Shown: positions 27,943 to 43,047 of the stretch, piece by piece
Layout of the letters: the number at the start of each line of letters is the position of its first letter
How positions within the stretch are numbered: position 1 is the first letter of the stretch
From: Fibrobacter sp.
GTDB lineage: Bacteria; Fibrobacterota; Fibrobacteria; Fibrobacterales; Fibrobacteraceae
Direction: 5' to 3'
NCBI GenBank assembly: GCA_024399015.1
Contig: JAKSIC010000002.1
Coordinates: 68,732-132,731, forward strand
DNA length: 64,000 bases
Made by a program: the position numbers and the translations under genes
The notes under the pieces: generated by a model
Databases searched by the model: none
What the model saw: the letters and a program-made list of their open reading frames with translations, nothing else
Told to the model about the DNA's origin: nothing

Positions 27943-28006
27943 AATTTCACTCTTTTTATTTTCGTGGAACGCGCTATTTCTTGAAACGCGCCAAACCATT
28001 TATGTC

Positions 28007-28034: not shown

Positions 28035-28042
28035 AACTTTCG

Positions 28043-28348: not shown

Positions 28349-28369
28349 GGCTCAAAAATACAAAAAATC

Positions 28370-30535
28370 CTAGCGGGGTCCGGCCTGCTGCTTGATTTTC
28401 CATGCAAGGGAAGCATCGGCAGCCTCAGCCTTATATTCATACTCAGGCTTGTAGCCTCTGGCTTCGCCTACAGCATCCTTGCCACCACCGGCATACCAGT
28501 TGTCTACCATCTTCACAAAGCCAACTGTGGTATCAATGGGAGCGTCGCCATCCCAAAGGCGATAGAGGGAAACAGCGTTGTCCTTATTGAAAACATTCTT
28601 CTCAATGTAGCAACGGGCTGAGTCTGTGCATTCCACACCATAATGGTCAACATCCATAAAGAAGTTGTTGTAGGCATGAAGCTTTCCTCCGCGAGCAAAC
28701 ACTCCAGATACGCTCATATTGGCAAAGTAGTTGTGATGCATTGTCAAGGTCTGATCGGTTTCCTTGAACAAATCCGGTTCAAGACCAAACAGAACACCTG
28801 TATTAGCATTTTCAAAACGAGACCAGGAAATGGTAACGTCAAAAGAGTTGCGCTTCATGTCCACTTGATAAATGGGATATTCATCAAAGGTGCAATGATC
28901 AATCCAAATTTTGTTTGTAATATTATGCAAGGAAACGGCCCTGTGCATGCTAGAATCCTTTTCATAAACAGAGGGTGCATTGAAAGTGATGTTTTCGAAA
29001 ATCACTTCTGTAGTTCCATCCGTCATGATTCCCGTTCCAGTAATCTGGACATCGCGACCGCGGCCATCAAAAGTCTTGTAAGATGTAATGCGGAGAGGAG
29101 AGCCCAAATGGTACACACCGCTCTTTTCAAACAGGATCCATGCGGCAGTATCACGCATAGCGCAGTCACGCAAGGAGCCCGGGGCAATGATTACCTTAGT
29201 GCCAATGTTACCCAAGGAATCTACAGCAGTAGAATCATCAACAACAATGTAATCTTCCATCGTTGTTACGCGGCAAATAATGCCATCTGCGCCACCGCGA
29301 ATTCCAGCAACGTAGCCTTCTGCTGAAGCAATCAAGGCGTCGTGAGCAGACCAGTCTTCGGAATAAACAGTATAGTTCTGATTCTTGGAAGCAACATTCT
29401 TCAAAGTGGATTCGTCGATGCCACCCAAAGTCACATCATCAAGGAACAATGTGTCGCCATCCACCATCTGGAAATCAATTCGACTAATCTTAATATTCTT
29501 ACCGTCGGCCTTGCCATAGGGTTTCATATCGTCTACTGCAATAGAGAAACCCTTCCACACTTTCTTCAATTCAACTTCAGTTTCGTAGCCACCTTCGGTA
29601 GAATCGCCGAAGCCGCCAAAGGATACGGCAACTCGCAAAGTTCCGTTACCGCGGGCAGAGAACATGAGTGAATCAAGTCCCGGCAGAACGTAGGCAGAAT
29701 CAGCATTACCCAAAAGGAAACCAAGACGCTTCTCAGTACGGGCGCAGCCACCAGAAGCACAGCCGTCGCTACCGGAGTACTTGCGAGTAAGAGACTTGTC
29801 CCAAAGGGGCAAAACGTTTTCGCCATCAGCATCCAGTGAGTACCACCAGCCGTCGCCAAGGAATTCGCCAGTAGAGGAAATGCCGGTGAAGCGTTCAAAG
29901 TCTTCCACCACAAAGCCGCGGACCTTGCCCAAGCTTACTTCGGGAACTTCGTCGCCAGCAGTGGCGGACAACTTAATGGTTCCGCGATTAGAAAGGCTTG
30001 CAATCTGCAAGTCGAAACTACCTGCAGGGAGCGAGTCAATCACAAAGTAGCCAGCACTATCCGGAACCACATAACGATCCAAACCAGCAATACGAATTAC
30101 AGAGGGGCCCTGACCTGCAGCAACACGGCCCTGAATCGTAGTCAGTTCACCAAGTTTCACTTCATTGGACAAATCAGTCTTGGAGTCCAGCGTTACGTAG
30201 GTAACGGCACCTTCCGCATTTTCGCCCGTCGTGTTGCGAGCTTCAATGGTATAGGATCCGTTGGAAACCTTTTCAAACTTGACTTTGCCCTTGTCATCGG
30301 AAACAGTCCATTCTGCGTCAGTCAGACCATCAGCCAAGAAGTCTTCGGACAGCATACGAACACGAGTCTTTGCTGCGGGAGAACCATCTGCCAAACGAAT
30401 CTGCAAGGCGATGGTAGATTCAGCTTCGGTACCGCCGGCAGTCTGCGGATCAGGGCTACAGCCCGTCAACCAAGCGCTAGACAGCATCCCTACGGACAAA
30501 GTCGTCAAAAGCTTAGATGAAAATTTAAACATCAT
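28370..30535 (-). CDS. Lipoprotein: carboxypeptidase-regulatory-like Ig domains + CBM11-like domain + PL1 pectate-lyase fold, apparently inactive
   Basis: Lipobox LTGC then AGGTEAES; VVEDFE...FLDDVTL jelly-roll; GSLRDC, KTFDGRG, IWIDHCTF, HAYNNFF are PL1 motifs, but RxPxxR reads SGVFAR. Confidence 0.8.
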   Translation of the reverse strand: MMFKFSSKLLTTLSVGMLSSAWLTGCSPDPQTAGGTEAESTIALQIRLADGSPAAKTRVRMLSEDFLADGLTDAEWTVSDDKGKVKFEKVSNGSYTIEARNTTGENAEGAVTYVTLDSKTDLSNEVKLGELTTIQGRVAAGQGPSVIRIAGLDRYVVPDSAGYFVIDSLPAGSFDLQIASLSNRGTIKLSATAGDEVPEVSLGKVRGFVVEDFERFTGISSTGEFLGDGWWYSLDADGENVLPLWDKSLTRKYSGSDGCASGGCARTEKRLGFLLGNADSAYVLPGLDSLMFSARGNGTLRVAVSFGGFGDSTEGGYETEVELKKVWKGFSIAVDDMKPYGKADGKNIKISRIDFQMVDGDTLFLDDVTLGGIDESTLKNVASKNQNYTVYSEDWSAHDALIASAEGYVAGIRGGADGIICRVTTMEDYIVVDDSTAVDSLGNIGTKVIIAPGSLRDCAMRDTAAWILFEKSGVYHLGSPLRITSYKTFDGRGRDVQITGTGIMTDGTTEVIFENITFNAPSVYEKDSSMHRAVSLHNITNKIWIDHCTFDEYPIYQVDMKRNSFDVTISWSRFENANTGVLFGLEPDLFKETDQTLTMHHNYFANMSVSGVFARGGKLHAYNNFFMDVDHYGVECTDSARCYIEKNVFNKDNAVSLYRLWDGDAPIDTTVGFVKMVDNWYAGGGKDAVGEARGYKPEYEYKAEAADASLAWKIKQQAGPR

Positions 30536-31445
30536 CGTCCCCTTCTACATCACCATTTTCACTAGAGGCATTCTCGATTGTTTCCATTCCGCGGATACGG
30601 CGTTTGCGGCCGCGTCGCTGCGGAGGAGGATAAGGATCAGACAGAGGGAACAACTGCATTCCCAGCTGGAAAACTCGATTGGGTTTCTGGCACTGTCCTA
30701 CCTTAGCCAAAATTTCACGACGGAAACGGCGGACCATTTCCACCAATTCCTTATATGTATCTTCGTCACAGCCAAATGCAAGCGTAGACAAGTTGCGTTC
30801 TTCACGACTGAAACGGTCCATGGCATCTTGAGCCACGGTCAAATTCTGCTGGATGTAAGAATTCACAGCGGTGCTGTAGGATTCACTTCCGCTGGAAATC
30901 AAGCCCTGAGTCTGTTCGTAAAAACCGGTCTGCTCATTCTTCTTGATCATAGAAAGACGTTCAAGAAGTGCGATAGAGGATTTCACCTGGCTTGCAGAAA
31001 TAGGCGGACGCACCATCAAACCGAGGGCAGCATCGTCACCCACATAAGGATAAAAAGTGACCAGTTCACGAATGACCGCATGGTACCAGTTGTCGAAATA
31101 TTCAAACTGGTCCTTGGCCACATCTTCAACCTTGCATTCCTTGGTAGCAACAAGCTTTTCAAGGAACTGACGGCTTTCAGAATGGTTCTTTGCCTGGTTG
31201 AAAGCAACCATGTCGGCAAAGTATTTCTTTTCACGTTCATCCTTACAGAAAATATCAGCAAAAACAGAAACCAGACGAGAAGTCAGGTTACGCTTACCCT
31301 GCAAGATTTTATTGAACATGGAAGCATCGAAGCCAGCCTTTTCAGCAATAAAGCGGTGGCTAAAACGCCAGTCACCGGCATGACGTTCTTCGTATGCGTC
31401 CTTCAAAAAATCGCGGTAATTCAAATATTCAAAAAGATTGATCAT
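30525..31445 (-). CDS. TIGR02147 family protein (N-terminal HTH, DUF4423-like C-terminus)
   Basis: NLFEYLNYRDFLKD, FSHRFIAEKAG, ILQGKRNL, YFDNWYHAVIREL, VFQLGMQLFPLS; 11-bp overlap with the lipoprotein gene. Confidence 0.92.
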   Translation of the reverse strand: MINLFEYLNYRDFLKDAYEERHAGDWRFSHRFIAEKAGFDASMFNKILQGKRNLTSRLVSVFADIFCKDEREKKYFADMVAFNQAKNHSESRQFLEKLVATKECKVEDVAKDQFEYFDNWYHAVIRELVTFYPYVGDDAALGLMVRPPISASQVKSSIALLERLSMIKKNEQTGFYEQTQGLISSGSESYSTAVNSYIQQNLTVAQDAMDRFSREERNLSTLAFGCDEDTYKELVEMVRRFRREILAKVGQCQKPNRVFQLGMQLFPLSDPYPPPQRRGRKRRIRGMETIENASSENGDVEGDDDV

Positions 31446-31451
31446 GGAAAC

Positions 31452-31528
31452 GTAGACTTTTTATTTTGTTTTTCCATCATTTAATATAACAAAAAGTCTA
31501 CACTTTGAGCAAATTTTTGTCCACACTC
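31452..31528 (-). promoter_or_regulatory. Promoter/operator region of the TIGR02147 gene
   Basis: -10 TATATT (31483-31488, minus) bracketed by a perfect 11-bp inverted repeat GTAGACTTTTT (31452-31462) / AAAAAGTCTAC (31491-31501); extra GTCCACACTC 31519-31528. Confidence 0.65.
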
Positions 31529-31559
31529 TGTGTAAGATGTGTGTTTAGTCATACAACAG

Positions 31560-31584
31560 AAAAAGGCCCGGCAAAAGCCGGACC
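31560..31584 (-). terminator. Intrinsic terminator after the CE12 gene
   Basis: Minus strand GGTCCGGC-TTTT-GCCGGGCC-TTTTT. Confidence 0.7.
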
Positions 31585-31606
31585 CTCTTCGATGGAAAAA
31601 GTTGTT

Positions 31607-33364
31607 TTACTTTGTTTTGAAATACTTGCCGGGAGCCATCTTGCGACCAGAAACGGTACGGCCCAGAAGGTTCACGGTACGGTTCTGATTCAAGAGCACC
31701 GAACGAGAATCCATTCTCTTTCCGATAGATTCCGTGGAGGAACTGGAACTAGCCGGTTCCACCACAGGTTCCGCGCCGATACGGTAAACGTCCTTGATGT
31801 CAAAGCCAACCACGTCAATATTGGGGCCACCGTCAGAAGTCAACGAGGTAAACTTCAAGTCAAAATCACAGGCATCCAGCCAGACATCATCCACATAAAC
31901 GGTATCCCATGTATCCCAGGAACCGCTAGGCTTAAATTCCACTTCGTAGGTCTTGGCATCCACCTGCACGCTCATCTTGCTTGTCGTTGTCTTACCGTTG
32001 CAGTAGCGAATGAACATACGCGCATTAGATGCGGACTGGTAGGATGTCATCTTGTAAGTACCATAGGAGCTTACGGAATTATCAAAATTGAAGAAACCCT
32101 TTCCTACAAAACCCAAATGGTTGGATTCAGTCCATCCCGCAGGACCAAACTCATCAGGATAGGACATATCGCTTACGCTGGGCCAAGCGTCCGTTCCCTT
32201 AAGAATTTCAAACTTGACGACTTCGCTGATGCTGGAAGAAGATGCGGGAGTTTCGCTGGAACTGGAACCTGCAACGGGAACGTTTTCGCTTCCGTGATTT
32301 GTAGTCACGCACTGGGCACCACCTTCAAACATCGCAGTATAGGTAATATCGCGGTAAGGCATTTTCACCTTGTAGTAGTTGGAATCCGCAGTCACCTTCT
32401 TGCAGTCATCATCGGCCCAATACTGGAAACGCTTACCAAAACTACCCGGAGAAACATGAAGATTCAAAGCAGCGCCACCCGGCAAATTCTGATTGTGGGT
32501 AATAAGGCCACTTCCAGCAACATTGGCCTTTACCGTCAGTTTATACGTGGGAGCAATAGCGCCAACCAATGTGGTCAAGGCAGCCTTTTCAGAAGAATTC
32601 ACGCTGGAATTATTCAGATTTTCACGAAGGCCTTCCGTAATCAACTGGGCATGAACCACAGAACCAGATTCCTGGAAATGGGTTGTACCGTCGTTTGTTA
32701 CACCACCTGCATAGTTGGGATATTCACCCGGCAGGAACATCTTGAAAATGTAGCGGGAAATATAGGCAGAGCTGATCTGCTTATACAAGTTATAGGTCTT
32801 GGTAGTCAAGTCAATAAACGGGACACCGTTCTTCTTTGCAACACTTGCAATCACATCCTTCACAGGGTATTCCTTGCCCTTATGGGATGCATCGGTCATG
32901 TTGTTATCAAACACGTTACGAGGATAAGTGTTCAACATCAACGGGCTCATCAAAACAATGTGAGCATTCTTTCTCTTGGCTCCATCCACATATTTCTGGA
33001 ACCAATATTCACTAGAATCAATGGGAACATAGCGATCAGCCTTGGAATAGTCTCGGTCATTGGTTCCCAACTGAACAAAGATGTAATCCCCCGGCTGGGT
33101 AGCATTCAGAACTGCATCCAAGCGGCCATCATTCACAAAGGACTTGGAGCTACGGCCACCAATGGCGTAGTTAATCACCTTCACTCGAGACTGATCAAAG
33201 AAAGGTGCAATCACCTGGCCCCAACCAGTTTGAGGATAAGCACTTTCCTTGTAATCGCAAACGGTGGAGTCACCAATCACATGGATCGTGAAAGAAGTAG
33301 TATCGCTAACGGCAACGCTGGTGAACAAGGCAGCGACAGCAAAATATTTCAGAATAGTTTTCAT
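31607..33364 (-). CDS. Rhamnogalacturonan acetylesterase (CE12, SGNH) + linker + CBM35 + short basic tail
   Basis: VIGDSTV, GWGQV, NYAIGGRSSKSF, QLGTND, THF; CBM35 GFVGKGFFNFDN..GGPNIDVV; start set at ATG 33364 after GGAG. Confidence 0.88.
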   Translation of the reverse strand: MKTILKYFAVAALFTSVAVSDTTSFTIHVIGDSTVCDYKESAYPQTGWGQVIAPFFDQSRVKVINYAIGGRSSKSFVNDGRLDAVLNATQPGDYIFVQLGTNDRDYSKADRYVPIDSSEYWFQKYVDGAKRKNAHIVLMSPLMLNTYPRNVFDNNMTDASHKGKEYPVKDVIASVAKKNGVPFIDLTTKTYNLYKQISSAYISRYIFKMFLPGEYPNYAGGVTNDGTTHFQESGSVVHAQLITEGLRENLNNSSVNSSEKAALTTLVGAIAPTYKLTVKANVAGSGLITHNQNLPGGAALNLHVSPGSFGKRFQYWADDDCKKVTADSNYYKVKMPYRDITYTAMFEGGAQCVTTNHGSENVPVAGSSSSETPASSSSISEVVKFEILKGTDAWPSVSDMSYPDEFGPAGWTESNHLGFVGKGFFNFDNSVSSYGTYKMTSYQSASNARMFIRYCNGKTTTSKMSVQVDAKTYEVEFKPSGSWDTWDTVYVDDVWLDACDFDLKFTSLTSDGGPNIDVVGFDIKDVYRIGAEPVVEPASSSSSTESIGKRMDSRSVLLNQNRTVNLLGRTVSGRKMAPGKYFKTK

Positions 33365-33374
33365 TACTCCTACC

Positions 33375-35261
33375 CTACTTTGTCTTTGCAATCTTCTGAT
33401 GCATCACCTTGGAACCCTTGCGGATTACAACATGATAAAGTCCAGAAGTCTTCACCATTTCATTCAATTCTACAGAAGAAATACGATCACCCACAACCAT
33501 TTCACGTTTTGCCACAAGCTTACCGCGCATATCAAACACGCTCACGGAAGCATTGCTCAAAGTATTCAAATAAAGATTTCTGTTGTGAATGGCCTGAAGA
33601 TTAGCGATAGAATCCAAAGAATCCTTTTCTGCCTTTTCTTTTGCGATAACGGCATTAACGCAGGCGGTATCGCTTGCTCGGCAAACATCATCAATGCTGA
33701 AGCCGAAGACGTCAATATTGGGAGCACCGTCACTGGTGAGAGACATAAACTTCAAATCAGCTTCACCAAGAGGAGCATCCATAACAACGTAAGCGGTGTC
33801 CCACTTGTCCCAGCCACCGGTGGGAGGAGCGCTTACATAGTAATCGTGATCCAAGTAGGCATTGAACATACGGTCGGTAGTTCCGCCATTTGCATAGCGA
33901 ACTGCCAAAGTGGTATAGCCCGCACCAGGGAAGTTCACCTTATACGTTGCAAAAGACTTATTCGAATTGTCAAAATTATAGAAACCTTCACCTGTAAATC
34001 CAGCGTTATTGCTTTCGGTCCAACCAACGCCCTGATCATCGGGTTTAGCAGCATCAAAGAATTTCTTGATATCCTTGTCAACGGCAACAGAAGTTTCCGT
34101 TGTGCCGCCAATGGGGGTAAAGGGTTCAAAGGTAACATCGGCGAGGCTCTTAGGAGTGGTAGTAGGGAAAGCAGTTAATGCCTTGCCATCACCAGTGTAC
34201 TTTTGAGCGGTACCACCTTCATAAACAGCGGTATACTGCGTAGACTTATTACCCATCTTAAAGGTGTAAATGTACGGAGACTTCACCGTAGAAATTGCGT
34301 TGCCGGAAACCTTATTTCCGTTACCGTCATACCAGCCCAGGAATTTCTTTCCACTCTTGGGAATGGTCTTCAGCATTACGGTCATGCCTTCGGGATAGTA
34401 GGCTCCGATAGAAGTTGCTTCTGCAGCACCTTCGGGAGAAACCTTTACATCCACCTGGTACATGGGAGCCATGTAGTCACCCAATTTCTTGACCATGGGG
34501 TCCTTATGGGCACGCATCTGTTCCGTAATGATTCGGCCAAAGGCGTTTGCACCATTCATCTGCAGATGAACCTGGTCAGCCTGGTCACTGCCCAGGTTAC
34601 TGTATTCATCCCTGGTGGCATAGTTAAAGATAAACTGAGCGGCATACCGTTCACCCACAGAAATCATGTAGTTAGCCACCATTTCACTCATGTCAATAAA
34701 CGGAACATTCAATTCTTCGGACAACTTTTGGTTCAAGGCAGGATAACCACGATAACTATTATGGATTGCGGTCGGAGAATCGTAGTAGAGACGGCGAATA
34801 GGGCTCATAATGATGGGATAGGCGCCCTTAGCCTTGGCTTCTGCCACCAGCTTTCTCATGTTGGAAGCAAAGAAATCCTCGGTACTGTAGCTAACGTCGT
34901 TAATACCAAATTGGATCACCACATAGTCGCCAGCCTGAACCTTATCAGCAATACAATTGCTGCCGGAAGTACAGCCATGTTTCCAGAACATGTCGTAGTA
35001 ACCCACAGCAGTATTTCCCTTCTTGTCGAGGCCACCACCACCAAGGGACATACCGCCCTGACCGCGATTTACAACGACAGCCTTATTGAACCAGAAATGG
35101 AAATCCTGGCCCTGGCCCTGCTTAGGGTAATAACCGGAGGCCCAGTCCTGCATGGTGGAATCACCAAGCATGTAGATGGTTACTCCTGCGTAGGTAGCCG
35201 GAGCCACAAGCAAAGATCCTGCGACAACGCCCTGCCAAATTTTGCTAAACAATTTGTTCAT
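33375..35261 (-). CDS. CE12-like SGNH esterase + CBM35 + C-terminal sorting domain
   Basis: MLGDSTM, QFGIND, DQVHL; CBM35 GFTGEGFYNFDN..VRYANGG..DGAPNIDVF; start set at ATG 35261. Confidence 0.88.
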   Translation of the reverse strand: MNKLFSKIWQGVVAGSLLVAPATYAGVTIYMLGDSTMQDWASGYYPKQGQGQDFHFWFNKAVVVNRGQGGMSLGGGGLDKKGNTAVGYYDMFWKHGCTSGSNCIADKVQAGDYVVIQFGINDVSYSTEDFFASNMRKLVAEAKAKGAYPIIMSPIRRLYYDSPTAIHNSYRGYPALNQKLSEELNVPFIDMSEMVANYMISVGERYAAQFIFNYATRDEYSNLGSDQADQVHLQMNGANAFGRIITEQMRAHKDPMVKKLGDYMAPMYQVDVKVSPEGAAEATSIGAYYPEGMTVMLKTIPKSGKKFLGWYDGNGNKVSGNAISTVKSPYIYTFKMGNKSTQYTAVYEGGTAQKYTGDGKALTAFPTTTPKSLADVTFEPFTPIGGTTETSVAVDKDIKKFFDAAKPDDQGVGWTESNNAGFTGEGFYNFDNSNKSFATYKVNFPGAGYTTLAVRYANGGTTDRMFNAYLDHDYYVSAPPTGGWDKWDTAYVVMDAPLGEADLKFMSLTSDGAPNIDVFGFSIDDVCRASDTACVNAVIAKEKAEKDSLDSIANLQAIHNRNLYLNTLSNASVSVFDMRGKLVAKREMVVGDRISSVELNEMVKTSGLYHVVIRKGSKVMHQKIAKTK

Positions 35262-35283
35262 ACCCAAAGACTCCAACCCTTTT

Positions 35284-37908
35284 TTACTTTACAGCAAACA
35301 CACTCTTCGCAACTGCCAAACCGTTGACCTTAACAACCACAATGTACTGGCCCTTAGTAAGCATTTCGCGATCAATACGAACGTCGTTCAAGCCTGCAGC
35401 CACATTCTTGTAAATACTACCCACAATATGGCCACGCACGTCATAAACCAAAACTTCAGCATCGCCACTCATGTTCGTGCGAAGAACACCAGTCACCGGA
35501 TTGTAAGAGTTCGTTCCGAGAACAACCGGAGCAAGAATTGCCTGGGTAGGAACCTTCTGGTCAGCAAAGATTTCAACACCGTCCATGGCGAAAGTAAAAT
35601 GGTCCACATTGGGGCCGCCATCGGAAGTCATGGAAGTAAGTTTGATTGTATTCTTGCCAGCCTTCAAGGCAATATCCACAGTAACTTCCTTATAAGTGGT
35701 CCAGCCAGTTGCAGCAAATTCAACAACACCCGCAGACTTTCCGTTCACAGAGAGAGCCATATTACGGTTTGCCGTACCACCGTTAGCAAAGCGGATAGTC
35801 AAAGTTGTCTTTGCATCGCTGGGAGAGAAGATTTCCCATACACCGTAACTGGAAATAGAATTTGCAAAATTGAAGAAACCATCCTGTTCGAAGCCCGCAT
35901 TATCGGTCTGGCATACAAAGCCATCAAATTCTACAGGCTTACAAATTTCCAAGGAAGACTTACCGTCCTTAACGACAGGATAATCTTCTGTTTCATCAGG
36001 AACAGACACGATAGGCTCGCCCACCACCTGAATTTCAGGTTGCTTCAAGTTCTTGACCATATCTGGCAGGTAGTAACCGAGGTGCGGCGGCTGGTTGTAG
36101 GCAGTGTTCTGCCAGGCGATTGCAGTGCGGTAAACCGGATCGTGCATCAGGGTGTATACGCGATGAGGAGAGGTCACCGGAGTAGACACAATGAACAAGG
36201 TGGTAGGATCGCCATCCTTACGGAGCACCATTTCTTCGCGCCAGTCGCCGAAGAGGTCAGCCACCAGGGACGGGGTATTCTTGGTGCCGTTGCAGCCGGC
36301 AGCCTTCAAAGCGACAGGACCATCGAAATAGACATTCGACTGCTTTGCTGCGGGATCGTACTTGGACACATAACCGCCATCCAGCAGTTCGTCGTATGCA
36401 TCGCCATCGAAGTAGATACGGAAATTCATGGCCAAGGCGGGAGTTCCAAGGAATTCACCCTTGATGGAGTGAAGTCCACCACCCTTGGAAGACCAGAATT
36501 CATAGCCGCGGTGAGTGGAGTCGATATCGGCAGCAATACCACGGCCGTTATCCTTACCACCCTGAGGGCTACAGTAAAGAATCTTTCCGTCCTTATCACG
36601 AAGATCATCGGTACATTCTGCGTTAGTATGTTCCTGAACTCCGAAGAATTCAAGGCCCGGACGATCCGGATCCAGGTCGCCCAAGTGGCCAGCGTCACCA
36701 TGGCCAAGGCCAGTGCGGTAGCGCAAGGTACCATCGTGATTCAGGGATGCAGCACCAAAGACAATTTCATCGTAGCCGTCGCCATCGATATCGCCGGTAG
36801 TAATGTTGTGGTTACCTTCTTCGTAAAGGCCCTGGCCCGGATTTTCAGACTTATGGAACCAACGCTGCTTTAGAGTGGTTCCGTCAAAGTCGTAGGCCAC
36901 AACGTATGAGGAAGAGTAATAACCGCGGATAAAGATTGCACTGGGATGCACACCATCAAGATAAGCGGTTGCAGCAATGTAACGTTCAGAACGGTTACCG
37001 TAGTTATCGCCCCAGTAGCCAGCTCCATTCTTGCCCTTTTCGGACTTCAGGATATTACGGGGAGGAACAAAGTCGATTGTCGTAATGGCAGAACCGTCTA
37101 CACCGCGGAAAACAGTCAGGAATTCGTTTCCGGTAAGAACTAAGCCGTTGCCATCGCGATAAACCTTGGACTTGTCGCCAATGGCCTTGCCCTTGCCGTC
37201 GATAGAACCATCGGAAGTCTTCACAATCATTTCAGCCTTGCCGTCGCCATCGTAGTCAAAGACCTGGAACTGGGTGTAATGAGCGCCCGCACGGATGTTC
37301 GGGCCAAGGTCAATGCGCCACAGACGGGTACCATCCAGCTTATAGGCGTCAATAAACACGGTGCCCGTATAGCCGGTCTGGGAGTTATCGTGGGCGTTGG
37401 AAGGATCCCACTTCAGGATAATTTCGTATTCGCCGTCACCATCCAGGTCGGCAGCGCTTGCGTCGTTAGGAGTGTAAGTGCAAACTTCGCCATCGGGCAT
37501 GGTCTGATTTGCAGGAGGCTGCAGCTTGATAGTCTTGAAAGGAACTGAACGACCCGTATTTTCGACAGTCTGGTCCAAAACCACGGAAACACCTGATTTT
37601 GAGCCTTCCTTACCGTCTACAACGGCGGCAATTTCATACTTGGAGGACACCTTGCCAGACTTGTCCAAGAAATTTGTACCTTCAGAACCCTTGATAGATG
37701 CAACTTTGGAACCGTCGCGATAAAGATTGAATTCGGTAGCGGGGTCATCTGTACCCAGCAGACGCCAGCTTACCAAAACACCAGAACCCACGTTGGACGC
37801 CACCAGACCGCGAGTCAAGTTTTCCATCTGTTTCGGAGCAGCATTCGCTGCGGAGCTCACACCCAAAATTGTTGCACCAGCCAAAAGAATCTTAAGATAC
37901 TGTTTCAT
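35284..37908 (-). CDS. Rhamnogalacturonan lyase (PL11, YesW-like) + CBM35 + C-terminal sorting domain
   Basis: QMENLTRGLVA, VSWRLLGTD, YTPNDASAADLDGDGEYE, NIRAGAHYTQF, HGDAGH, ADLFGDWREE, YNQPPH. Confidence 0.93.
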   Translation of the reverse strand: MKQYLKILLAGATILGVSSAANAAPKQMENLTRGLVASNVGSGVLVSWRLLGTDDPATEFNLYRDGSKVASIKGSEGTNFLDKSGKVSSKYEIAAVVDGKEGSKSGVSVVLDQTVENTGRSVPFKTIKLQPPANQTMPDGEVCTYTPNDASAADLDGDGEYEIILKWDPSNAHDNSQTGYTGTVFIDAYKLDGTRLWRIDLGPNIRAGAHYTQFQVFDYDGDGKAEMIVKTSDGSIDGKGKAIGDKSKVYRDGNGLVLTGNEFLTVFRGVDGSAITTIDFVPPRNILKSEKGKNGAGYWGDNYGNRSERYIAATAYLDGVHPSAIFIRGYYSSSYVVAYDFDGTTLKQRWFHKSENPGQGLYEEGNHNITTGDIDGDGYDEIVFGAASLNHDGTLRYRTGLGHGDAGHLGDLDPDRPGLEFFGVQEHTNAECTDDLRDKDGKILYCSPQGGKDNGRGIAADIDSTHRGYEFWSSKGGGLHSIKGEFLGTPALAMNFRIYFDGDAYDELLDGGYVSKYDPAAKQSNVYFDGPVALKAAGCNGTKNTPSLVADLFGDWREEMVLRKDGDPTTLFIVSTPVTSPHRVYTLMHDPVYRTAIAWQNTAYNQPPHLGYYLPDMVKNLKQPEIQVVGEPIVSVPDETEDYPVVKDGKSSLEICKPVEFDGFVCQTDNAGFEQDGFFNFANSISSYGVWEIFSPSDAKTTLTIRFANGGTANRNMALSVNGKSAGVVEFAATGWTTYKEVTVDIALKAGKNTIKLTSMTSDGGPNVDHFTFAMDGVEIFADQKVPTQAILAPVVLGTNSYNPVTGVLRTNMSGDAEVLVYDVRGHIVGSIYKNVAAGLNDVRIDREMLTKGQYIVVVKVNGLAVAKSVFAVK

Positions 37909-37929
37909 AAGAACACTCCTACATCAACT

Positions 37930-37962
37930 GTAGACAAATATATCCAAATAATGTCCACACTT
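37930..37962 (-). promoter_or_regulatory. Promoter/operator of the PL11-CE12-CE12 operon
   Basis: -10 TATATT (37937-37942, minus) between GTAGAC (37930-37935) and GTCCACACTT (37953-37962). Confidence 0.55.
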
Positions 37963-38027
37963 CTCGTAAAAAAAGGAGACCTTATGGATAAAAAGTCCAT
38001 GAAGAATCCACCCCCGTTTATTATCCC

Positions 38028-38072
38028 AAAAAAGCCTTTCCCGCTAAAAAGTTCTGTTCTTAGGGGAAAGGC
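38028..38072 (-). terminator. Intrinsic terminator after the upstream PL11 gene
   Basis: GCCTTTCCC (38034-38042) / GGGAAAGGC (38064-38072) stem, U-run on the minus strand. Confidence 0.6.
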
Positions 38073-38080
38073 ATCAAGTT

Positions 38081-41062
38081 TTATCGGTTGGACACCTTTG
38101 CTTTGGAAATCATGCGTCCGTTGAACTTAACTTTCACGAAATAAACGCCCTTGGGAAGCATTTCGCCATCAGCCTTCAGCAAGGTTTCGCCCGCGGGAAC
38201 ATCAGCACTCATGCCATATTTCATGGTGCCGCTCATATCGTAGTAGTAAACTTCTGCGAAGCCACTTTCTGAGGTTCGAATCACGCCAGAGACTGGGTTA
38301 TAGCCGACGATTCCGCGGACATTCACTACATTCTGCACAGCAGCAGGATTTTCAGGATTTTCGTCCTCGAACTTCACCTTGCCAGATTCATAATCGCGAT
38401 AGAGGCAGATGTCCGCCTGATCGAAATAGAACAAGTCGACATTCGGGCCACCCAAGGCAGAAACCGCAGTAAGCTTCAAGGTATTCTTACCTTCTACAAG
38501 TTTCACCTTCACCTCAGTTTCCATCCAGTTGGTCCAGCCATCGGTAGAAGCAAATTCCACTTCACGGACATCAACCCCATTAATGGACAGCATCATGTTA
38601 CGAGGATCTGCGCCACCGTTTGCAAAGCGGACGGTCACAGTCACTTCGCCAGCCTTCTTGGAATAAAGTTCCCAAACGCCATAGCTGCCAACTGCATTAT
38701 CAGAATTGAAGTAACCGCTATCCAGCCAGCCGGCATTGTATTCTTCATAAACGCCCAGCATTTCATCAGGAATGGCGGCGTTCACTTCGGAAGGATAGTT
38801 GGTAGAAATCGTGGGCTTACCGCCTTCGCTGCTAGAAGATTCTTCCGGCACAAAGCTGCTAGAGGATTGGGGAATCGAGGGGTCGGTCACCACGATCTGG
38901 CCAGAAAGGGAGGCAGCATCACCGGTGCCGCCAACGGTTGTTGCGGTAAAGGCAAAAGTACCGATTTCAGTAGGAGTACCGGAGATGTAAATCTTCTTGT
39001 CAGAGGTATTCAAAGTTGCAGTCACACCCTTGGGAAGGCCTTCCACCTTCACGCCGGTGCAGTTGGCATATGCGTACGCGAAGTCCAAAATGGCGGTACC
39101 CAAAGCAACGGTCTGACGGCTGGAACCGGCACCATTCTTGGTAATAGTTGCAGCAGGCATCACCACTTCGCCAGAACTTGCAACAGTATAAATTTCCGGC
39201 TGCTTCAAGCTTTTCACCATATCCGGCAAGTAGTAGCTCACGTGAGGCGGCTGGTTGTAAGCCACATTCTGCCAAGCCACGCTAACACGGTACTGAGAAT
39301 CGTGAAGCAAAGTATACAGGCGGAAGTTGGTCTTTACGGGAGTAGAGAAAATGGTCAGCAGAGAAGGGTCTGTGCTGGAACGGGCAATGAATTCTTCGCG
39401 CCAGTCGCCGAACAGATCCGCAGAAATGCAGGGATTAGCCTTGGTGGAATTGTTCAAGGTAGAACTATTCACGTTGTAGAAGCTGAAATAGCGATCGATG
39501 GTCTTGGCGGAAGAGTTCCACTTTTCGATCTTACCACCGCTGCCGTTAGAGCCCGTGTTGTCCAAAAGTTCATCCTGCAGGTCGCCGTCAAAGTAAATGC
39601 GGAAGTTCACGGAAGGCTTCTTGTCGGAAAGCAGAGCACCCTTTACAGTGCGGATTCCACCGCTGGTTCCAGACCACATTTCAAAACCGCGGTTGGTGGA
39701 ATCGATATCCGCCGCAAGGCCACGGCCATTATCTACACCGTCGCCCACCTGTTCAGTTCCCCAGATGACCTTACCATCGGGGCCGCGGAATTCTTCGGAA
39801 TACTTGTTCTTCTTTTCTTCGTGAACATCGTAAACTTCAAGACCAGCACGGTCCGGATCCATGTCGGAAAGATGCATGGCGTCGCCGTGACCAAATCCGG
39901 TGCGGTACAGCAAAGTGCCGTCGGACTTGAGGGCTGCAGAACCAAAGACAATTTCATCCTTGCCATCACCGTTAATGTCACCAACAGACAGGTTATGGTT
40001 ACCTTCGCCATAAAGGCCCTGGCCAGAGGTGGTTGCAGAATACTGCCAACGGTTCACCAATTTTCCATCCTTAAAGTCGTAGGCGGCCACAAAAGCCTGG
40101 GTGTAATAACCGCGGCACATAATCAAACTGGGGTGTTCGCCATCCAGGTAAGCAATGGCTGCCAGCATACGGTTATCGCGGTTACCGTAATTGTCGCCGG
40201 TAATCTTACCACGGGCAGGCCAATAGTTAATAGTGTTAATTTCTGCACCGGTAGTGCCATTGAAAACGGTCAGGTATTCGTTACCGCTCATGATGGTACC
40301 GGTGGAAGTGCGATAGTCCTTGGAAGCGTCGCCGATGACCTTACCCTTGCCATCTACAGTGCCGTCGCTAGTCTTTACTGCGATTTCTGCAATGCCGTCG
40401 CCATCAAGGTCGTAGACCATGAACTGGGTGTAATGGGCACCAGCGCGAATGTTTCGACCCAAGTCAATACGCCACATCTTGCGACCATCGAACTTATAGG
40501 CGTCCAAGTAAACGTTGCCGGTGTAACCGGACTGAGAGTTATCCTTGGAATTGTTAGGATCCCACTTCAGTACAAATTCCAGTTCGCCGTCACCATCCAG
40601 ATCACCCACGCTCATGTCGTTAGGGGTGTAACTGCAAGTGGTGCCGTCGGGTGTTTTCACGCCCTTAGGAACATCTACAGAAATGGTTGCATAGGGGAAG
40701 CTGAGACTGCCGGACTTGTAAGTCTTGTCATAAACAAAAGAAAGACCCTGGGCCTCGCCTTCTGCACCAGCCACAACAGGAGCCACAGTGTACTTAGAAG
40801 TTGTCTTGCCGGTAGCGTCCAGATAGTTGGTTGCCTGCGTTCCACTGATGGTGGCGATTTTTGCACCATCGCGATAAAGATTGAATTCCGTATTAGGCTT
40901 TTCTGTACCCAGAAGGCGCCAGCTGACAAGCATTCCGCCGCCAACGTTTGCAGCGACAAGGCCTCGGCTCAAATTTTCCATTTGACGAGCCGCATTTGCC
41001 TGAACGGTCAAACCAAGGCCCAAACCAAAAGCCACAACGGCTTTCACTAATCCATATCCCAT
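38081..41062 (-). CDS. Rhamnogalacturonan lyase (PL11) + Ig-like domain + CBM35 + C-terminal sorting domain
   Basis: RQMENLSRG, YTPNDMSVGDLDGDG, GHGDAMH, ADLFGDWREE, YNQPPH; insert GLPKGVTA..ISGTPT; start set at ATG 41062 after GGAG. Confidence 0.93.
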   Translation of the reverse strand: MGYGLVKAVVAFGLGLGLTVQANAARQMENLSRGLVAANVGGGMLVSWRLLGTEKPNTEFNLYRDGAKIATISGTQATNYLDATGKTTSKYTVAPVVAGAEGEAQGLSFVYDKTYKSGSLSFPYATISVDVPKGVKTPDGTTCSYTPNDMSVGDLDGDGELEFVLKWDPNNSKDNSQSGYTGNVYLDAYKFDGRKMWRIDLGRNIRAGAHYTQFMVYDLDGDGIAEIAVKTSDGTVDGKGKVIGDASKDYRTSTGTIMSGNEYLTVFNGTTGAEINTINYWPARGKITGDNYGNRDNRMLAAIAYLDGEHPSLIMCRGYYTQAFVAAYDFKDGKLVNRWQYSATTSGQGLYGEGNHNLSVGDINGDGKDEIVFGSAALKSDGTLLYRTGFGHGDAMHLSDMDPDRAGLEVYDVHEEKKNKYSEEFRGPDGKVIWGTEQVGDGVDNGRGLAADIDSTNRGFEMWSGTSGGIRTVKGALLSDKKPSVNFRIYFDGDLQDELLDNTGSNGSGGKIEKWNSSAKTIDRYFSFYNVNSSTLNNSTKANPCISADLFGDWREEFIARSSTDPSLLTIFSTPVKTNFRLYTLLHDSQYRVSVAWQNVAYNQPPHVSYYLPDMVKSLKQPEIYTVASSGEVVMPAATITKNGAGSSRQTVALGTAILDFAYAYANCTGVKVEGLPKGVTATLNTSDKKIYISGTPTEIGTFAFTATTVGGTGDAASLSGQIVVTDPSIPQSSSSFVPEESSSSEGGKPTISTNYPSEVNAAIPDEMLGVYEEYNAGWLDSGYFNSDNAVGSYGVWELYSKKAGEVTVTVRFANGGADPRNMMLSINGVDVREVEFASTDGWTNWMETEVKVKLVEGKNTLKLTAVSALGGPNVDLFYFDQADICLYRDYESGKVKFEDENPENPAAVQNVVNVRGIVGYNPVSGVIRTSESGFAEVYYYDMSGTMKYGMSADVPAGETLLKADGEMLPKGVYFVKVKFNGRMISKAKVSNR

Positions 41063-41197
41063 AACACACTCCATTCGGGCATAGCCCTTATGTTTTACAC
41101 CAAGAAGAAAACTAATCTAAAAAGGTTCCTACATCCACACCCTTCCCGATTTTACCGTAGTCCAGGGACTACGGACACCCATTTTCTTCTAATTTGG

Positions 41198-41236
41198 AAT
41201 ATACATACTTTTTATATAAAAGTCAACACTTTTGAG
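41198..41236 (-). promoter_or_regulatory. sigma70 promoter of the upstream PL11 gene with overlapping operator-like motif
   Basis: Minus strand TTGACT (41221-41226), 17 bp, TATATT (41198-41203); AAAAGTCAACACTTTTGAG 41218-41236 nearly equals AAAAAGTCTACACTTTGAG 31491-31509. Confidence 0.7.
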
Positions 41237-41385
41237 TTATTTTACAAAATTTTTAATTTTCAATTACAATTCACAAAATAAAAAGTCCACATTTCAAATA
41301 AAAATCCTCATTTTTTCATTTTTTAAGATACCAGGTTCACTCACCCGTCGTAGAACCACGCTTTTTTACTACATTTTGGCCCGTT

Positions 41386-42378
41386 ATGGCAAAATGGTGG
41401 AGTAAGTTTTCTTGGGAGTGGCTGTTCGATGGTATCGCAGCCCGCTCTCCGACTTTTGTAAAAGTCATTATCGTCACCGGCAAGTCATTCTTTTACTACC
41501 ACGGCATGACCCGTGCAGCTTCCCTGACCTACACCACCCTGGTGGCAGTGGTTCCCCTCCTGATTTTGCTTACATCCATATCCCTTGCCGTGGGCCTCGG
41601 CCATTTCATGTCTGATTATTTGCCCATTTTGCTGGACATGCTCAACCTGGACTGGCCCACCGAAGGCCTTATCGAGATCGTCAAGAACGCAGAACACGTT
41701 CCCATCGGCAAACTGGGATTCGTCGGCGCACTCGGCCTTTTTGTCACATTCATCCTGGCTTTCGGCAGTCTGGAAACAAACTTCAACGTGGTTTGGGAAA
41801 ACAAGACCTCCAGAACCTTGCTCCGCCAGACCCAGATCTACACGCCGTTTTTGTTGATTGTGGCCGGCATCATCGGCATGTTTGCAGGATTTGTAAACCA
41901 CATTCAGCAGGTTTTGAACATGATTGTGGTAGAAGGTTTGCACTTCTCCCCCGAAACATTGACAACGATCATCAACGCCTTCTGGTACACCGCCTTCCAT
42001 TTTGCGGCCATCCTGTTGATTTTCCTGATGCTCCGAGCCCTGCCCGCTAGACCGAGGAAAAAGGCAAAGCTTTATACAAAGCAAAAATTGACCCTCGTAT
42101 CCTTGATGTCCGCCCTTATTTCCTGGTTCGCCATCAATATTTACGTGAAAATTTTGATGTTCATCCAGACCGCCATGGTCACCCGTATGTCCATCTTCTA
42201 CGGTTCTCTGGCCTTTATTCCCCTACTTTTGTTCTTGGTTTTTGGAATCTGGACAATTATATTATGTGGAAACAGCCTCGTGTGGACCATCTGTTGTTGG
42301 CCCGAGGCCAAGGAAAAGAAATGGAACTGGGAAGCAACCCTGGAGGACGTCCATGACAGCTCTATCGATGAAAAATAA
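41386..42378 (+). CDS. YihY/virulence factor BrkB family membrane protein
   Basis: RAASLTYTTLVAVVPLL, LETNFNVVW, IFYGSLAFIPLLLF; multiple TM helices. Confidence 0.9.
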   Translation: MAKWWSKFSWEWLFDGIAARSPTFVKVIIVTGKSFFYYHGMTRAASLTYTTLVAVVPLLILLTSISLAVGLGHFMSDYLPILLDMLNLDWPTEGLIEIVKNAEHVPIGKLGFVGALGLFVTFILAFGSLETNFNVVWENKTSRTLLRQTQIYTPFLLIVAGIIGMFAGFVNHIQQVLNMIVVEGLHFSPETLTTIINAFWYTAFHFAAILLIFLMLRALPARPRKKAKLYTKQKLTLVSLMSALISWFAINIYVKILMFIQTAMVTRMSIFYGSLAFIPLLLFLVFGIWTIILCGNSLVWTICCWPEAKEKKWNWEATLEDVHDSSIDEK

Positions 42379-42961
42379 GATTATCGCCGCGGCACTTCTC
42401 GTATTTGCCTGCGCAACCAGCAGCTTTGCGGAACTCCGTTCTGTACAGTTCACACCTGAGGAACAGGCCAACGAAGGTCTTAAGACCTACATCGGCTTTG
42501 GTGGTGGCAACTCCATGATTATCGACGACGGAACCATTTTCATGAACCTCCGTATCGGTATTGAATTCAACTCTTTCATTGCCGCTGGAGCCTGGTTCTC
42601 CACCATTCTCAGCGACGTTCGTAACTACTCTGCCCCGGTTCCCGAAATGATCGACTATAGCGCATTCGGTCTGCAGGCAGAAGTCACCCCCTATCGCCAC
42701 AATTTCTTCTCCATTTCCATTCCGGTGAATATCGGTGGTGGTGCAGTGAACATTCTCAGAAAGGGTGACGAAGCATTCTCTTCCGAAGACTACTTCTTTG
42801 TAGTTGATGCATCCGCCCAGTTCAATTTCAAGGTGACCAAGAGACTTGAACTGTCCGTGGGTGGTGGTTACCGCGTATTCGCAGGTGTTGAAGCAAGCAA
42901 CCTGGAAAGCGGCGACTTCTGCACTCCTTTCGGCGAACTGAGATTCACCTTTAAGGAATAA
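42353..42961 (+). CDS. Hypothetical outer-membrane beta-barrel protein
   Basis: GGAGG then ATG 42353 (or 42368); signal peptide, amphipathic strands, VGGGYRVF, ELRFTF. Confidence 0.7.
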   Translation: MTALSMKNKIIAAALLVFACATSSFAELRSVQFTPEEQANEGLKTYIGFGGGNSMIIDDGTIFMNLRIGIEFNSFIAAGAWFSTILSDVRNYSAPVPEMIDYSAFGLQAEVTPYRHNFFSISIPVNIGGGAVNILRKGDEAFSSEDYFFVVDASAQFNFKVTKRLELSVGGGYRVFAGVEASNLESGDFCTPFGELRFTFKE

Positions 42962-43047
42962 AGATGCAAGGGGCGCGCCCACTGCCACCCCTCAACCTCC
43001 CCCTGGATGCAAATTTCACAAGGGCGATGCCCCAAGGACGGCGGTTT

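Follow-up and report, generated by a model that had tools for sequence, protein, structure and literature searches.

Pectin regulons are controlled by KdgR, a member of the IclR family, in Dickeya and Bacillus, and the rhamnogalacturonan cluster of Bacillus subtilis (with the PL11 enzymes YesW/YesX) by the AraC-type RhgR/YesS. In the Bacteroidota, which share the FCB superphylum with Fibrobacter, the regulators of polysaccharide utilisation are hybrid two-component systems, SusR and ECF-sigma/anti-sigma pairs, while Clostridium thermocellum has sigmaI/RsgI, alternative sigma factors with membrane anti-sigma sensors bearing CBMs. The Fibrobacter pectin cluster described here, located within a 64-kb stretch of DNA that we analysed as a whole (the window), resembles each of these systems in part. 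Akin to the KdgR and RhgR regulons, it appears to combine a dedicated regulator with an operator common to the pectinolytic units, including PL11 lyases and rhamnogalacturonan (RG) acetylesterases, but the candidate regulator belongs to a different family and the DNA element is an asymmetric GTGGAC followed by a T-tract, whereas the KdgR box is a longer palindrome. As with the local regulators of the Bacteroidota, a large set of paralogues is found beside the CAZyme genes that they would control, each with its own presumed DNA target, although the family is unrelated and probably of a cytoplasmic one-component type, and the locus has no SusC/SusD pair. The likeness to sigmaI/RsgI is that of a cellulolytic specialist in which one regulator family has expanded, with paralogues each tied to a different polysaccharide and apparently autoregulated from their own promoters; here, by contrast, the partner gene encodes a lipoprotein without cytoplasmic part, and the boxes behave unlike promoter hexamers.

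The cluster consists of three units, all on the minus strand. The first, behind promoter P1, begins with the gene of the candidate regulator (30525..31445), a protein of 306 aa assigned to TIGR02147 by NCBIfam and to DUF4423 by Pfam. The start of the next gene (28370..30535), which encodes a PL1 pectate-lyase lipoprotein with CarboxypepD_reg and Pectate_lyase_4 domains and the lipobox LTGC, overlaps its stop by 11 bp, and we therefore place PL1 in the P1 operon. The P2 operon (31607..37908) comprises the rhamnogalacturonan lyase PL11a (35284-37908), the CE12-like GDSL esterase b (33375-35276) and the CE12-like esterase a (31607-33391), and the P3 transcription unit is a second rhamnogalacturonan lyase, PL11b (38081..41074). 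A terminator-like hairpin after PL11b (GCCTTTCCC / GGGAAAGGC plus a T run, 38034..38072, minus strand) splits the P3 from the P2 unit, and since an intrinsic terminator with a 14-pair stem and T run follows CE12a (31559..31590, minus strand), P1 is an independent promoter in this genome. Rfam covariance models run over 28000-43000 gave a single match, BSnc120, with E = 0.84, whose 21 bits fall far below the gathering score of 114.

An earlier note on this DNA had proposed that the motif GTCHACACTT is common to all three promoter regions in the same orientation, and every coordinate it quoted proved correct: the motif has three exact matches in the window, all on the plus strand and one per promoter region (GTCTACACTT at 31496-31505 in P1, GTCCACACTT at 37953-37962 in P2, GTCAACACTT at 41222-41231 in P3), and no others. 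This count compares with 0.39 expected, and at least three matches occurred in 2 of 100 shuffled sequences; the relaxed form GTCHACAYTY gave seven matches against 1.47 expected, a number reached in none of 100 shuffles. As the pattern was set after the sites had been seen, these statistics are modest on their own, and it is the conservation and specificity of the motif in other genomes that lead us to regard it as beyond chance. Read on the coding (minus) strand, the motif becomes an asymmetric box of about 15 bp with the consensus 5'-AAaTGTGGACTTTTT-3', made up of a GT(G/A/T)GAC core, an A at -3, a T at -1 and a T-tract. The matrix used to score it was built from the P1-P3 sites of syntenic loci, with the core set by the regular expression GT[AGT]GAC; the core columns are thus invariant by construction, and the independent evidence in the matrix lies in flanks, spacing and location only. 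Two of the variants that the note had listed, GTCCACACTC at 31519 and GTCCACATTT at 41285, are present as described. The third, AAAAAGTCCAT at 37990, is there too, but its status as a box is doubtful: it reads ATGGAC on the gene strand, scores under the matrix threshold, is ATGGAT in the closest relative (locus L001), and seems to belong to a short palindrome, ATGGAC-TTTTT-ATCCAT. Likewise, the 19-bp match between 31491-31509 and 41218-41236 is real only if a 1-nt indel (TTT vs TTTT) is allowed, and its outer part, CTCAAA, shows no conservation in orthologues.

At P1 three boxes surround the -10 hexamer TATATT (31483..31488, minus strand), which is invariant in 7/7 P1 orthologues. The proximal box, AAGTGTAGACTTTTT (31491..31505, minus strand; 20.0 bits), ends 7 nt before TATATT and lies inside the spacer between the -10 and a -35-like hexamer, a position that is kept (7-8 nt from the -10) in seven species. 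The distal box, GAGTGTGGACAAAAA (gene strand; 31514..31528, minus strand), scores 12.1 bits, and 30 nt separate the end of its GTGGAC core from the -10 downstream; at this position A-TGTGGAC is invariant across the seven species (alignment A3). Between the two boxes and 18 nt upstream of the -10 stands the -35-like hexamer TTGCTC (31507..31512, minus strand), which would serve as the -35; a TTGC/TTGA hexamer occurs at 17-18 nt in 5/7 P1 orthologues. Across species, P1 keeps its two direct boxes 23-24 bp from each other, at 7-8 and 30-32 nt from TATATT. A third, inverted box, AAACGTAGACTTTTT (31448..31462, plus strand; 17.0 bits), follows the -10 and precedes the ATG at 31445. It provides the downstream arm of a perfect 11-bp inverted repeat (31452-31462 / 31491-31501), which is indeed present as the note had it, flanking the -10 (AATATA at 31483-31488, gene-strand TATATT), and which reaches 19 nt if complementarity of 84% is allowed. 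L001 and L007 likewise have an inverted copy downstream of the P1 -10; the orthologous P1 regions of L002, L004, L008 and L009 have none.

P2 and P3 carry the box at other distances. In P2 the box AAGTGTGGACATTAT (37948..37962, minus strand; 19.3 bits) has its GTGGAC core ending 10 nt before TATATT (37937..37942, minus strand), and is kept in L001, the sole other locus with a separate PL11a promoter. A weak inverted box, AACTGTAGACAAATA (37926..37940, plus strand; 12.2 bits), abuts the downstream side of the -10 with its GTAGAC core, 1 nt lying between them, and recurs at the same site in L001 (10884, 12.2 bits). In P3 the proximal box, AAGTGTTGACTTTTA (41217..41231, minus strand; 18.8 bits), is followed at 18 nt by TATATT (41198..41203, minus strand), and stands 18-19 nt before the -10 in 12/12 aligned orthologues as well as in L117. 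The distances of 7, 10 and 18 nt at P1, P2 and P3 are those given in the note, which had concluded that the motif is no mere -35 element. For P1 and P2 this holds; at P3, by contrast, the PL11b promoter has as its -35 hexamer the very TTGACT contained in the proximal box (TTGACT-17-TATATT, 10/12). The distal P3 box, AAATGTGGACTTTTT (41280..41294, minus strand), has the full consensus and with 22.7 bits the maximum score of the matrix. It is placed 63 bp upstream of the proximal box in the window and 63-67 bp in most orthologues, the exceptions being L004, L007 and L009 (53-54 bp, with a third box 24 bp further up), L003 (46 bp) and L115 (76 bp).

Comparison of 15 syntenic loci from Fibrobacter and Fibrobacteraceae, including alignments of seven P1 (A3) and 12 P3 (A4) orthologues, showed the boxes to be conserved, specific for these promoters and held at fixed distances from the TATATT -10. 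Nearly all invariant columns (20/22 in P1, 18/20 in P3) belong to the boxes, to a single neighbouring T or to the -10, the flanking sequence having a mean column identity of 47-58%. The motif is kept in all 15 loci, where identity of the regulator protein goes down to 66%, and the boxes are still present where that protein is only 66-75% identical.

Scans with the matrix, which covered loci and contigs, addressed specificity. Over the syntenic loci (311 kb) there were 41 matches of at least 14 bits within the 8 kb of P1-P3 regions and none in the other 303 kb. A further 104 kb of Fibrobacter genome sequence gave no match of at least 13 bits, and 1.23 Mb of non-Fibrobacter loci none of at least 14 bits (25 matches reached at least 11 bits, the strongest 13.7). 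In 197 kb of Fibrobacter-family contigs that had been retrieved for another purpose, 19 matches scored at least 14 bits, and 14 of these precede another PL11 gene or either of two different GH43 genes; of the five strays, three score 14.0-14.5 bits and two are one 15.5-bit site found in both L104 and L105. The validated sites in these contigs have the P3 architecture, with a distal box followed after about 65 bp by a proximal one of the TTGACT type, itself 18-19 nt upstream of TATATT, except that GH43 promoters have ATTGAC as their proximal element, so that only their distal box, near -98, is canonical. The concern that the motif might be equally common upstream of unrelated genes is thus not borne out: in about 0.6 Mb of Fibrobacter-family sequence, strong matches are confined mainly to pectin promoters, with these five strays. 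Because 14 of the 19 outside matches precede PL11 or GH43 genes and none is found elsewhere in the syntenic loci, the box is a predicted marker of a Fibrobacter RG-I/pectin regulon comprising PL11 lyases, CE12-type esterases, the TIGR02147-PL1 operon and, in other genomes, GH43 genes. Conserved at orthologues, specific, and recurring upstream of other GH43 and PL11 genes, it is very probably a regulator binding site, as the note had suggested on sequence grounds.

The candidate for its binder is the TIGR02147 protein itself, which matches the NCBIfam model over residues 1-270 with 353 bits (cut-off 50) and Pfam DUF4423 with 96 bits (cut-off 30). No hydrophobic N-terminal segment is seen in its sequence, so it is probably cytoplasmic, and Pfam recognised no sensor domain. 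An AF2 model (pTM 0.39; pLDDT 76-92 over the first 100 residues) places HTH helices at residues 30-37 and 41-48 and an H-H-H-beta-beta, winged-helix-like unit at 121-178. The best Foldseek neighbours are HigA, XRE, C.Esp1396I and MarR/winged-helix proteins; those of the HigA/XRE/C.Esp1396I type reach probabilities up to 0.99 and target TM scores of 0.5-0.64, but with E >= 0.2, and no match was obtained at E <= 0.001. The HTH_3 and HTH_31 models remained below their gathering scores (HTH_31: E = 0.085, 13.6 bits against a cut-off of 27, residues 28-67), HTH_31 reaching E = 0.0047 in a TIGR02147 paralogue. The model thus shows, with weak scores, an XRE-like HTH and, after it, a winged-helix-like unit. 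The N-terminal domain finds its best structural neighbours among XRE/Cro-type repressors, for example HigA antitoxins and the controller (C) proteins of restriction-modification systems such as C.Esp1396I, and the promoter layout is reminiscent of theirs: boxes lie over the -35 and the -35/-10 spacer of the own promoter, implying autoregulation, and are multiple, with apparently cooperative spacing. Unlike these small dimers with palindromic operators, however, the 306-aa TIGR02147 protein has a second winged-helix-like unit, a DUF4423 region and sub-threshold HTH_3/HTH_31 matches, and its presumed site is an asymmetric box with a T-tract, arranged in direct repeats 23-24 or about 53-67 bp apart.

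Gene arrangement and paralogues provided additional support for this assignment. The TIGR02147 gene always stands behind a box-bearing promoter, either its own P1 (seven species) or that of the P3 operon, in which case the intergenic gap is just 50-134 bp. The promoters of three other TIGR02147 orthogroups likewise bear conserved boxes particular to each group (GTACTAY direct repeats, the palindrome GAGAACGTTCTC, and TGTGTAAAAAT), the GTACTAY box also being present, inverted, in a neighbouring GH53 or GH43 promoter. Two further paralogues, seen in three closely related loci only, have an exact 10-mer (GTATCATTCC and GTATAATTCA, respectively) twice, 71-72 bp apart, in their own promoter only. 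The presumed recognition helix differs among the groups, and distinct boxes for each paralogue would follow most simply from binding of family members to their own promoters. The binder of the pectin box is accordingly most likely, as far as gene context and structural model suggest, the cluster's own TIGR02147 protein.

On balance we lean towards the interpretation that the box is a pectin/RG-I operator bound by the cluster's TIGR02147 protein acting as a repressor. One molecule would read one asymmetric box, and molecules on proximal and distal boxes would cooperate, which would account for the phased spacings (the distal P3 box is some five or six helical turns above the -35 box in most lineages). 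The bound protein would block RNA polymerase and thereby repress, its own promoter included; repression is suggested because a box always covers -36 to -15 of what is otherwise a good promoter of the sigma-70 type, these positions relative to +1 being set from the conserved TATATT. A pectin/RG-I-derived signal would then lift repression, and might come from basal amounts of the co-transcribed surface lipoprotein enzyme.

The regulator is not always adjacent to the boxes, since L005 and L006 have a boxed PL11 operon without a TIGR02147 gene inside the fetched locus and in L087-L096 the boxes adjoin a different TIGR02147 paralogue. These cases, and the weak support for a DNA-binding fold, would suit a genuine operator that is bound by a different, unlinked transcription factor, the TIGR02147-PL1 operon being just one of its targets. 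We regard this as unlikely: each lineage that was examined has the TIGR02147 gene behind a boxed promoter, the placing of two boxes on either side of the -35 where a regulator's gene is transcribed is typical of autoregulation, and the promoter of each of the other paralogues is marked by a different conserved or repeated box.

It also seems rather improbable that the TIGR02147 protein binds the boxes mainly to activate the CAZyme promoters, from a class II-like site at the -35 and an upstream site, and represses only itself, at P1. Many local regulators do activate their targets and repress themselves, P3-type promoters have the proximal box at the -35 with the best-conserved box far upstream, near -98, and a GH43 promoter in which that upstream box alone is canonical suits an activator as well as a looping repressor. 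Yet the P3-type -35/-10 hexamers are already near consensus at 17-18 nt, which is unusual for activator-dependent promoters, the register of the box to the -10 varies (7, 10 or 18 nt) where activators usually need a fixed one, and P1 and P2 have additional inverted boxes that cover the start region or follow it.

A core promoter element, be it the -35 of a housekeeping or alternative sigma factor or a UP-like element, is very improbable and largely refuted by geometry. TGGACT, TTGACT and TAGACT do resemble the -35 consensus TTGACA, and the spacing to TATATT at P3 is canonical in all orthologues, but the 16-18 nt spacing of a sigma-70 -35 hexamer is that of the P3 proximal box alone; the P1 and P2 boxes keep 7-8, 10 and 30-32 nt from the -10 across species, distal boxes lie 46-76 bp upstream, inverted copies exist, and the box is missing from other promoters in the sequence examined. 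The sigma-54-like GG-N10-GC spacing of a distal box and downstream TTGC, in turn, fits only the P1 distal box of the window and is shifted or absent in L002, L004 and L007. The notion that a short word recurs by chance where intergenic DNA is AT-rich, for which the post hoc pattern and the shuffle test (three matches in 2/100) could be invoked, is refuted, and its probability negligible, given the identical positions in 15 loci amid diverged flanks and the independent recovery at other pectin-related genes.

Taken together, these considerations favour the cluster's own TIGR02147 protein as the binder of the pectin box; if this is true, it would be the first function proposed for the large, uncharacterised TIGR02147 family.

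All genes of the pectin cluster lie on the minus strand: the PL1 pectate-lyase lipoprotein (28370-30535), the TIGR02147/DUF4423 protein (30525-31445), whose 3' end shares 11 bp with the start of PL1, a pair of CE12-like GDSL esterases (31607-33391 and 33375-35276), the PL11a rhamnogalacturonan lyase (35284-37908) and PL11b (38081-41074), with yihY (from 41386) divergent on the plus strand. Their promoter regions are P1 (31446-31606, TIGR02147-PL1 operon), P2 (37909-38080, PL11a/CE12 operon) and P3 (41075-41385, PL11b), and P1 and P2 are each preceded by a terminator hairpin. The closest public relative of this genome is the MAG JAZRWJ01 (locus L001), with cluster proteins 90-98% identical. Gut metatranscriptome contigs (X16, X25 and X26) span most of the cluster (window 28000-42500) with 90-100% identity, which means that close relatives express it in vivo in the gut; the three metatranscriptome contig sets covering the cluster provided no 5' ends that would mark transcription starts (one contig starts at window 41348), and three raw-read metatranscriptomes searched for the cluster yielded zero reads. 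We also note a hairpin with a perfect 9-bp stem in the predicted 5' leader of PL11b (window 41155-41174, CCGTAGTCC-ag-GGACTACGG on the plus strand), identical in L001. A comparison with Rfam found nothing.

An earlier note had proposed GTCHACACTT as a regulator site common to the three promoters; as the genes are on the minus strand, this is AAGTGTDGAC on the coding strand. All copies are located where that note placed them, and each promoter region contains one match to the motif, the only three in the 64 kb, against 0.39 expected. The relaxed form GTCHACAYTY has seven matches in the window (1.47 expected; no shuffle reaches seven), five of them within the P1-P3 regions. The perfect 11-bp inverted repeat flanking the P1 -10 is real, and the distances of 7, 10 and 18 nt to TATATT were confirmed. 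The '19-bp' match between the P1 and P3 copies is present, but needs a one-base indel. The variant AAAAAGTCCAT at 37990, in turn, was discarded as a box: on the gene strand it is ATGGAC, conservation is lacking, and its score falls short of the matrix threshold (see the position matrix below). It sits upstream of the P2 box in a small palindrome (ATGGAC-TTTTT-ATCCAT on the gene strand, window 37984-38000), kept in L001 as ATGGAT-TTTTT-ATCCAT and likewise not a box by the matrix.

Conservation of the boxes was assessed in ten syntenic Fibrobacter loci (L001-L010) from a PL11a scan of species-representative genomes, to which L081-L084, L115 and L117 were added via more distant TIGR02147 orthologues (66-75% identity). 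P1 orthologues with a real intergenic gap carry a pair of GTGGAC boxes in direct orientation at a spacing of 23-24 bp; TATATT follows the distal box after 30-32 nt and the proximal one after 7-8 nt. Five of the seven species also have a TTGC/TTGA hexamer between the boxes, 17-18 nt from the -10. The sole exception to the box pair is L003, where the gap of ~220 bp upstream of the TIGR02147 orthologue has no box; this intergenic region (L003 11560-11815) contains short tandem-like repeats (aattatgagttatgaattacgag; cttcatctttca twice). In all P3 orthologues the proximal box is 18-19 nt before the -10, such that TGGACT or TTGACT constitutes the -35 hexamer. The nearest upstream box is 63-67 bp away in nine loci (including the window, L081 and L117), 53-54 bp in L004, L007 and L009 (each with a third box 24 bp farther upstream), 46 bp in L003 and 76 bp in L115, most of these spacings being near whole numbers of helical turns. 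Mean column identity of the MAFFT promoter alignments is only 58% (P1) and 47% (P3), and 20 of the 22 invariant columns in P1 and 18 of the 20 in P3 fall in boxes or the -10, counting one box-adjoining T. The 44 aligned sites read A(-3, 39/44) R T(-1, 41/44) GT(G>A>T)GAC TTTT(T/A). In two metagenomic contigs the PL11 start as called (L081 3443, L082 3468) falls between the pair of boxes; translation probably begins beyond the second one and its TAGATT -10 (L081 3426-3505, L082 3451-3530). A good sigma-70-like promoter candidate for yihY (TTTACA-18-TACAAT, 10/12, window 41241-41270, plus strand) is sited between the two P3 boxes, which might thus also affect this gene.

The position matrix was built from the 44 sites collected with GT[AGT]GAC, and its core columns are therefore invariant by construction. 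At a threshold of 14 bits it returned 41 matches within the 8 kb of P1/P2/P3-type regions, whereas the remaining 303 kb of the syntenic loci, including ~25 other intergenic regions of the window, had none. No match of at least 13 bits was found in 104 kb around other TIGR02147 paralogues, and random sequence of promoter composition gives 0.22 matches per 10 kb. The strongest test of the matrix was an unplanned one, on contigs obtained for a different paralogue (L085-L109). Here the matrix gave 19 matches at or above 14 bits, and 14 of these are located upstream of a further PL11 gene (L087 and L088) or of two different GH43 genes (L087-L090, L092-L094, L096 and L109). The PL11 promoter and one GH43 promoter show the full P3 architecture (distal consensus box, ~65 bp, TTGACT-type element, 18-19 nt, TATATT), and in the second GH43 promoter both the distal box and a TTGACT-type element are present, with a less clear -10. 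The remaining five of the 19 are strays; noted as stray were two sites at 14.1 and 14.5 bits, one 15.5-bit site common to L104 and L105, and a near-box (GTTGGC) ~80 bp upstream of a PL11 paralogue in L016. Two outcomes that the earlier note had named as refuting therefore did not arise: in the sequence scanned, the proposed motif is conserved in orthologous promoters and not common upstream of unrelated genes. As the backbone of RG-I is cleaved by PL11 and deacetylated by CE12, while its arabinan side chains are trimmed by GH43 enzymes, the box marks a coherent RG-I/pectin regulon.

Which protein reads the box? We infer that it is the TIGR02147 protein of the cluster, which has no hydrophobic N-terminal segment and is thus probably cytoplasmic. 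Its AlphaFold model (mean pLDDT 71, pTM 0.39; first 100 residues at pLDDT 76-92) features a helix-turn-helix at residues 30-37/41-48, on which sub-threshold Pfam HTH_31/HTH_3 matches also fall, and, at 121-178, a unit of three helices and two strands with the look of a winged helix. Foldseek searches with this model gave no match at E <= 0.001, the best neighbours above that value being HTH domains of HigA, XRE and C-proteins and MarR/winged-helix proteins, and a family-profile search of PDB sequences gave nothing meaningful. The modelled structure and the sequence are consistent, if weakly, with a DNA-binding fold. The TIGR02147 gene is located behind its own box-bearing P1 in seven species, and in L081, L115 and L117, where the gap between CE12a and TIGR02147 is only 50-134 bp and boxless, it would be read from the P3 operon. 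With the exception of L003, the gene is under a box-bearing promoter throughout, a context that adds weight to the assignment. No TIGR02147 gene was found within the locus examined in L005 and L006, and in L087-L096 the boxes adjoin a different TIGR02147 paralogue. The pectin-type orthogroup has a conserved, strongly basic C-terminal tail (PPPQRRGRKRRIRG) followed by an acidic end (window 30525-30620); this tail is absent from most paralogues and could serve as an arm that contacts the minor groove at the box's T-tract.

DNA binding by TIGR02147 proteins would predict sites of their own for other paralogues, and such sites were indeed found. Nine orthologous promoters of the p3 paralogue (23% identical) carry invariant TTTACTAY-N5-GTACTAY direct repeats, with further GTACTAY pairs ~130 bp upstream and inverted copies in the promoter of the gene next to p3 (GH53 or GH43). 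In a subgroup with 46-48% identity to p3 a palindrome (GAGAACGTTCTC) is conserved, the p2 paralogue has up to three copies of TGTGTAAAAAT, and two further paralogues, known from three closely related loci only, have exact 10-mers (GTATCATTCC and GTATAATTCA), each present twice, 71-72 bp apart, in their own promoter only. These 10-mers contain -10-like words and may alternatively be read as tandem promoters. A leading TGT is common to several paralogue boxes, and the presumed recognition helix is unlike between paralogue groups (DASMFNKILQGKR, NTRSYFNDVVQGKR and KTRSYFADVLRGKR). Paralogues with boxes of their own, followed by a partner gene (see below), form the pattern expected of an expanded family of autoregulated local regulators, and it is mainly for this reason that we prefer the TIGR02147 protein over an unlinked factor. 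One GH43 gene (protein start MFGVMGLNSRG) has p3-type GTACTAY boxes in some genomes (L024 19900-19960, L085 6100-6165) versus pectin-type GTGGAC boxes in others (L088 5255-5400, L092-L094, L109), which looks like evolutionary rewiring between two TIGR02147 regulons.

Directly behind every TIGR02147/DUF4423 gene examined lies a partner gene that abuts its stop codon or overlaps it, by 0-17 bp among firm gene calls (window 28370-31445; L024 2782-7167 and 16771-19807; L110-L114). The partners are lipoproteins (lipobox L-x-x-C) with CarboxypepD_reg and/or Laminin_G_3 domains, or PL1 in the window, and TIGR02147 gene and partner form a conserved two-gene module. In L110-L112, three such pairs lie within 21 kb beside housekeeping genes, not CAZymes. 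A role of the partner as anti-factor or sensor was rejected in that form, since these proteins carry lipoprotein signal peptides and lack a cytoplasmic segment.

Each regulated promoter has a box within ~-36 to -15 and good hexamers already present. The box is in the spacer at P1, on the -35 at P3 and 10 nt from the -10 at P2, where the core of an inverted copy abuts the -10 on the downstream side; its register varies between promoters, and additional boxes are placed upstream at a distance of ~five or six helical turns. Because of this geometry, promoter occlusion fits and a register-dependent activator fits less well, the main point in favour of activation by TIGR02147 being that at the GH43 promoters no box other than the one far upstream is canonical. 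Two readings of the P1 boxes as promoter elements fail: the spacing of a sigma-54 promoter (TGGACA-N5-TTTGCT) is not conserved, and for the distal box as -35 and the proximal one as -10 (TGGACA-17-TAGACT), orthologues have TGGACT and lack the critical A2. Under occlusion, a cooperatively binding repressor would cover the promoter, possibly with DNA looping. With an asymmetric box arranged in direct repeats, each box may well be occupied by a single protein molecule that has two DNA-reading units; either the wing or the conserved basic tail RRGRKRRIRG might recognise the conserved T-tract. Speculatively, the inducer would be derived from RG-I or pectin, perhaps made by basal PL1 lipoprotein.

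By analogy, the element would work as a classical set of operators does for a local repressor that controls its own gene. In structure it comes closest to the XRE/HigA/C-protein systems; in function, its nearest counterparts are the PUL regulators of Bacteroidota and the pectin regulons of KdgR or RhgR. What sets it apart from all of these is the protein family, the asymmetry of a box that bears a T-tract, and the direct repeats. TIGR02147/DUF4423 is a large family of unknown function that is also present in Bdellovibrio; a full-text literature search found no paper that mentions TIGR02147 and a single mention of DUF4423, a proteomics table entry without functional data.

Fibrobacter are among the most effective fibre degraders of the herbivore gut, and to our knowledge their CAZyme regulation is essentially unknown, they are without SusC/D-type loci and few genetic tools exist at present. 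Several TIGR02147 paralogues occur within 20 kb, and presumably there are dozens per genome. We tentatively entertain, at somewhat below even chances, the idea that TIGR02147/DUF4423 proteins are Fibrobacter's main local one-component transcription factor family for polysaccharide degradation, each paralogue with its own asymmetric box, autoregulation and a translationally coupled surface lipoprotein, the pectin box being the first decoded operator of a family-wide code whose boxes can be swapped between promoters in evolution (one example seen, GTACTAY versus GTGGAC at the GH43 gene). The paralogue boxes would often be of a TGT-plus-variable-core type, and the coupled lipoprotein, with its CarboxypepD_reg/Laminin_G_3 or enzyme domain, might supply or sense the inducing glycan. 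The decoded operator provides a testable regulon for rhamnogalacturonan/pectin breakdown (PL11, CE12, PL1 and GH43) and a first functional hypothesis for the TIGR02147/DUF4423 family; the targets of other paralogues become predictable by finding the own box and scanning the genome, and the box promoters offer promoter/operator parts for Fibrobacter engineering.
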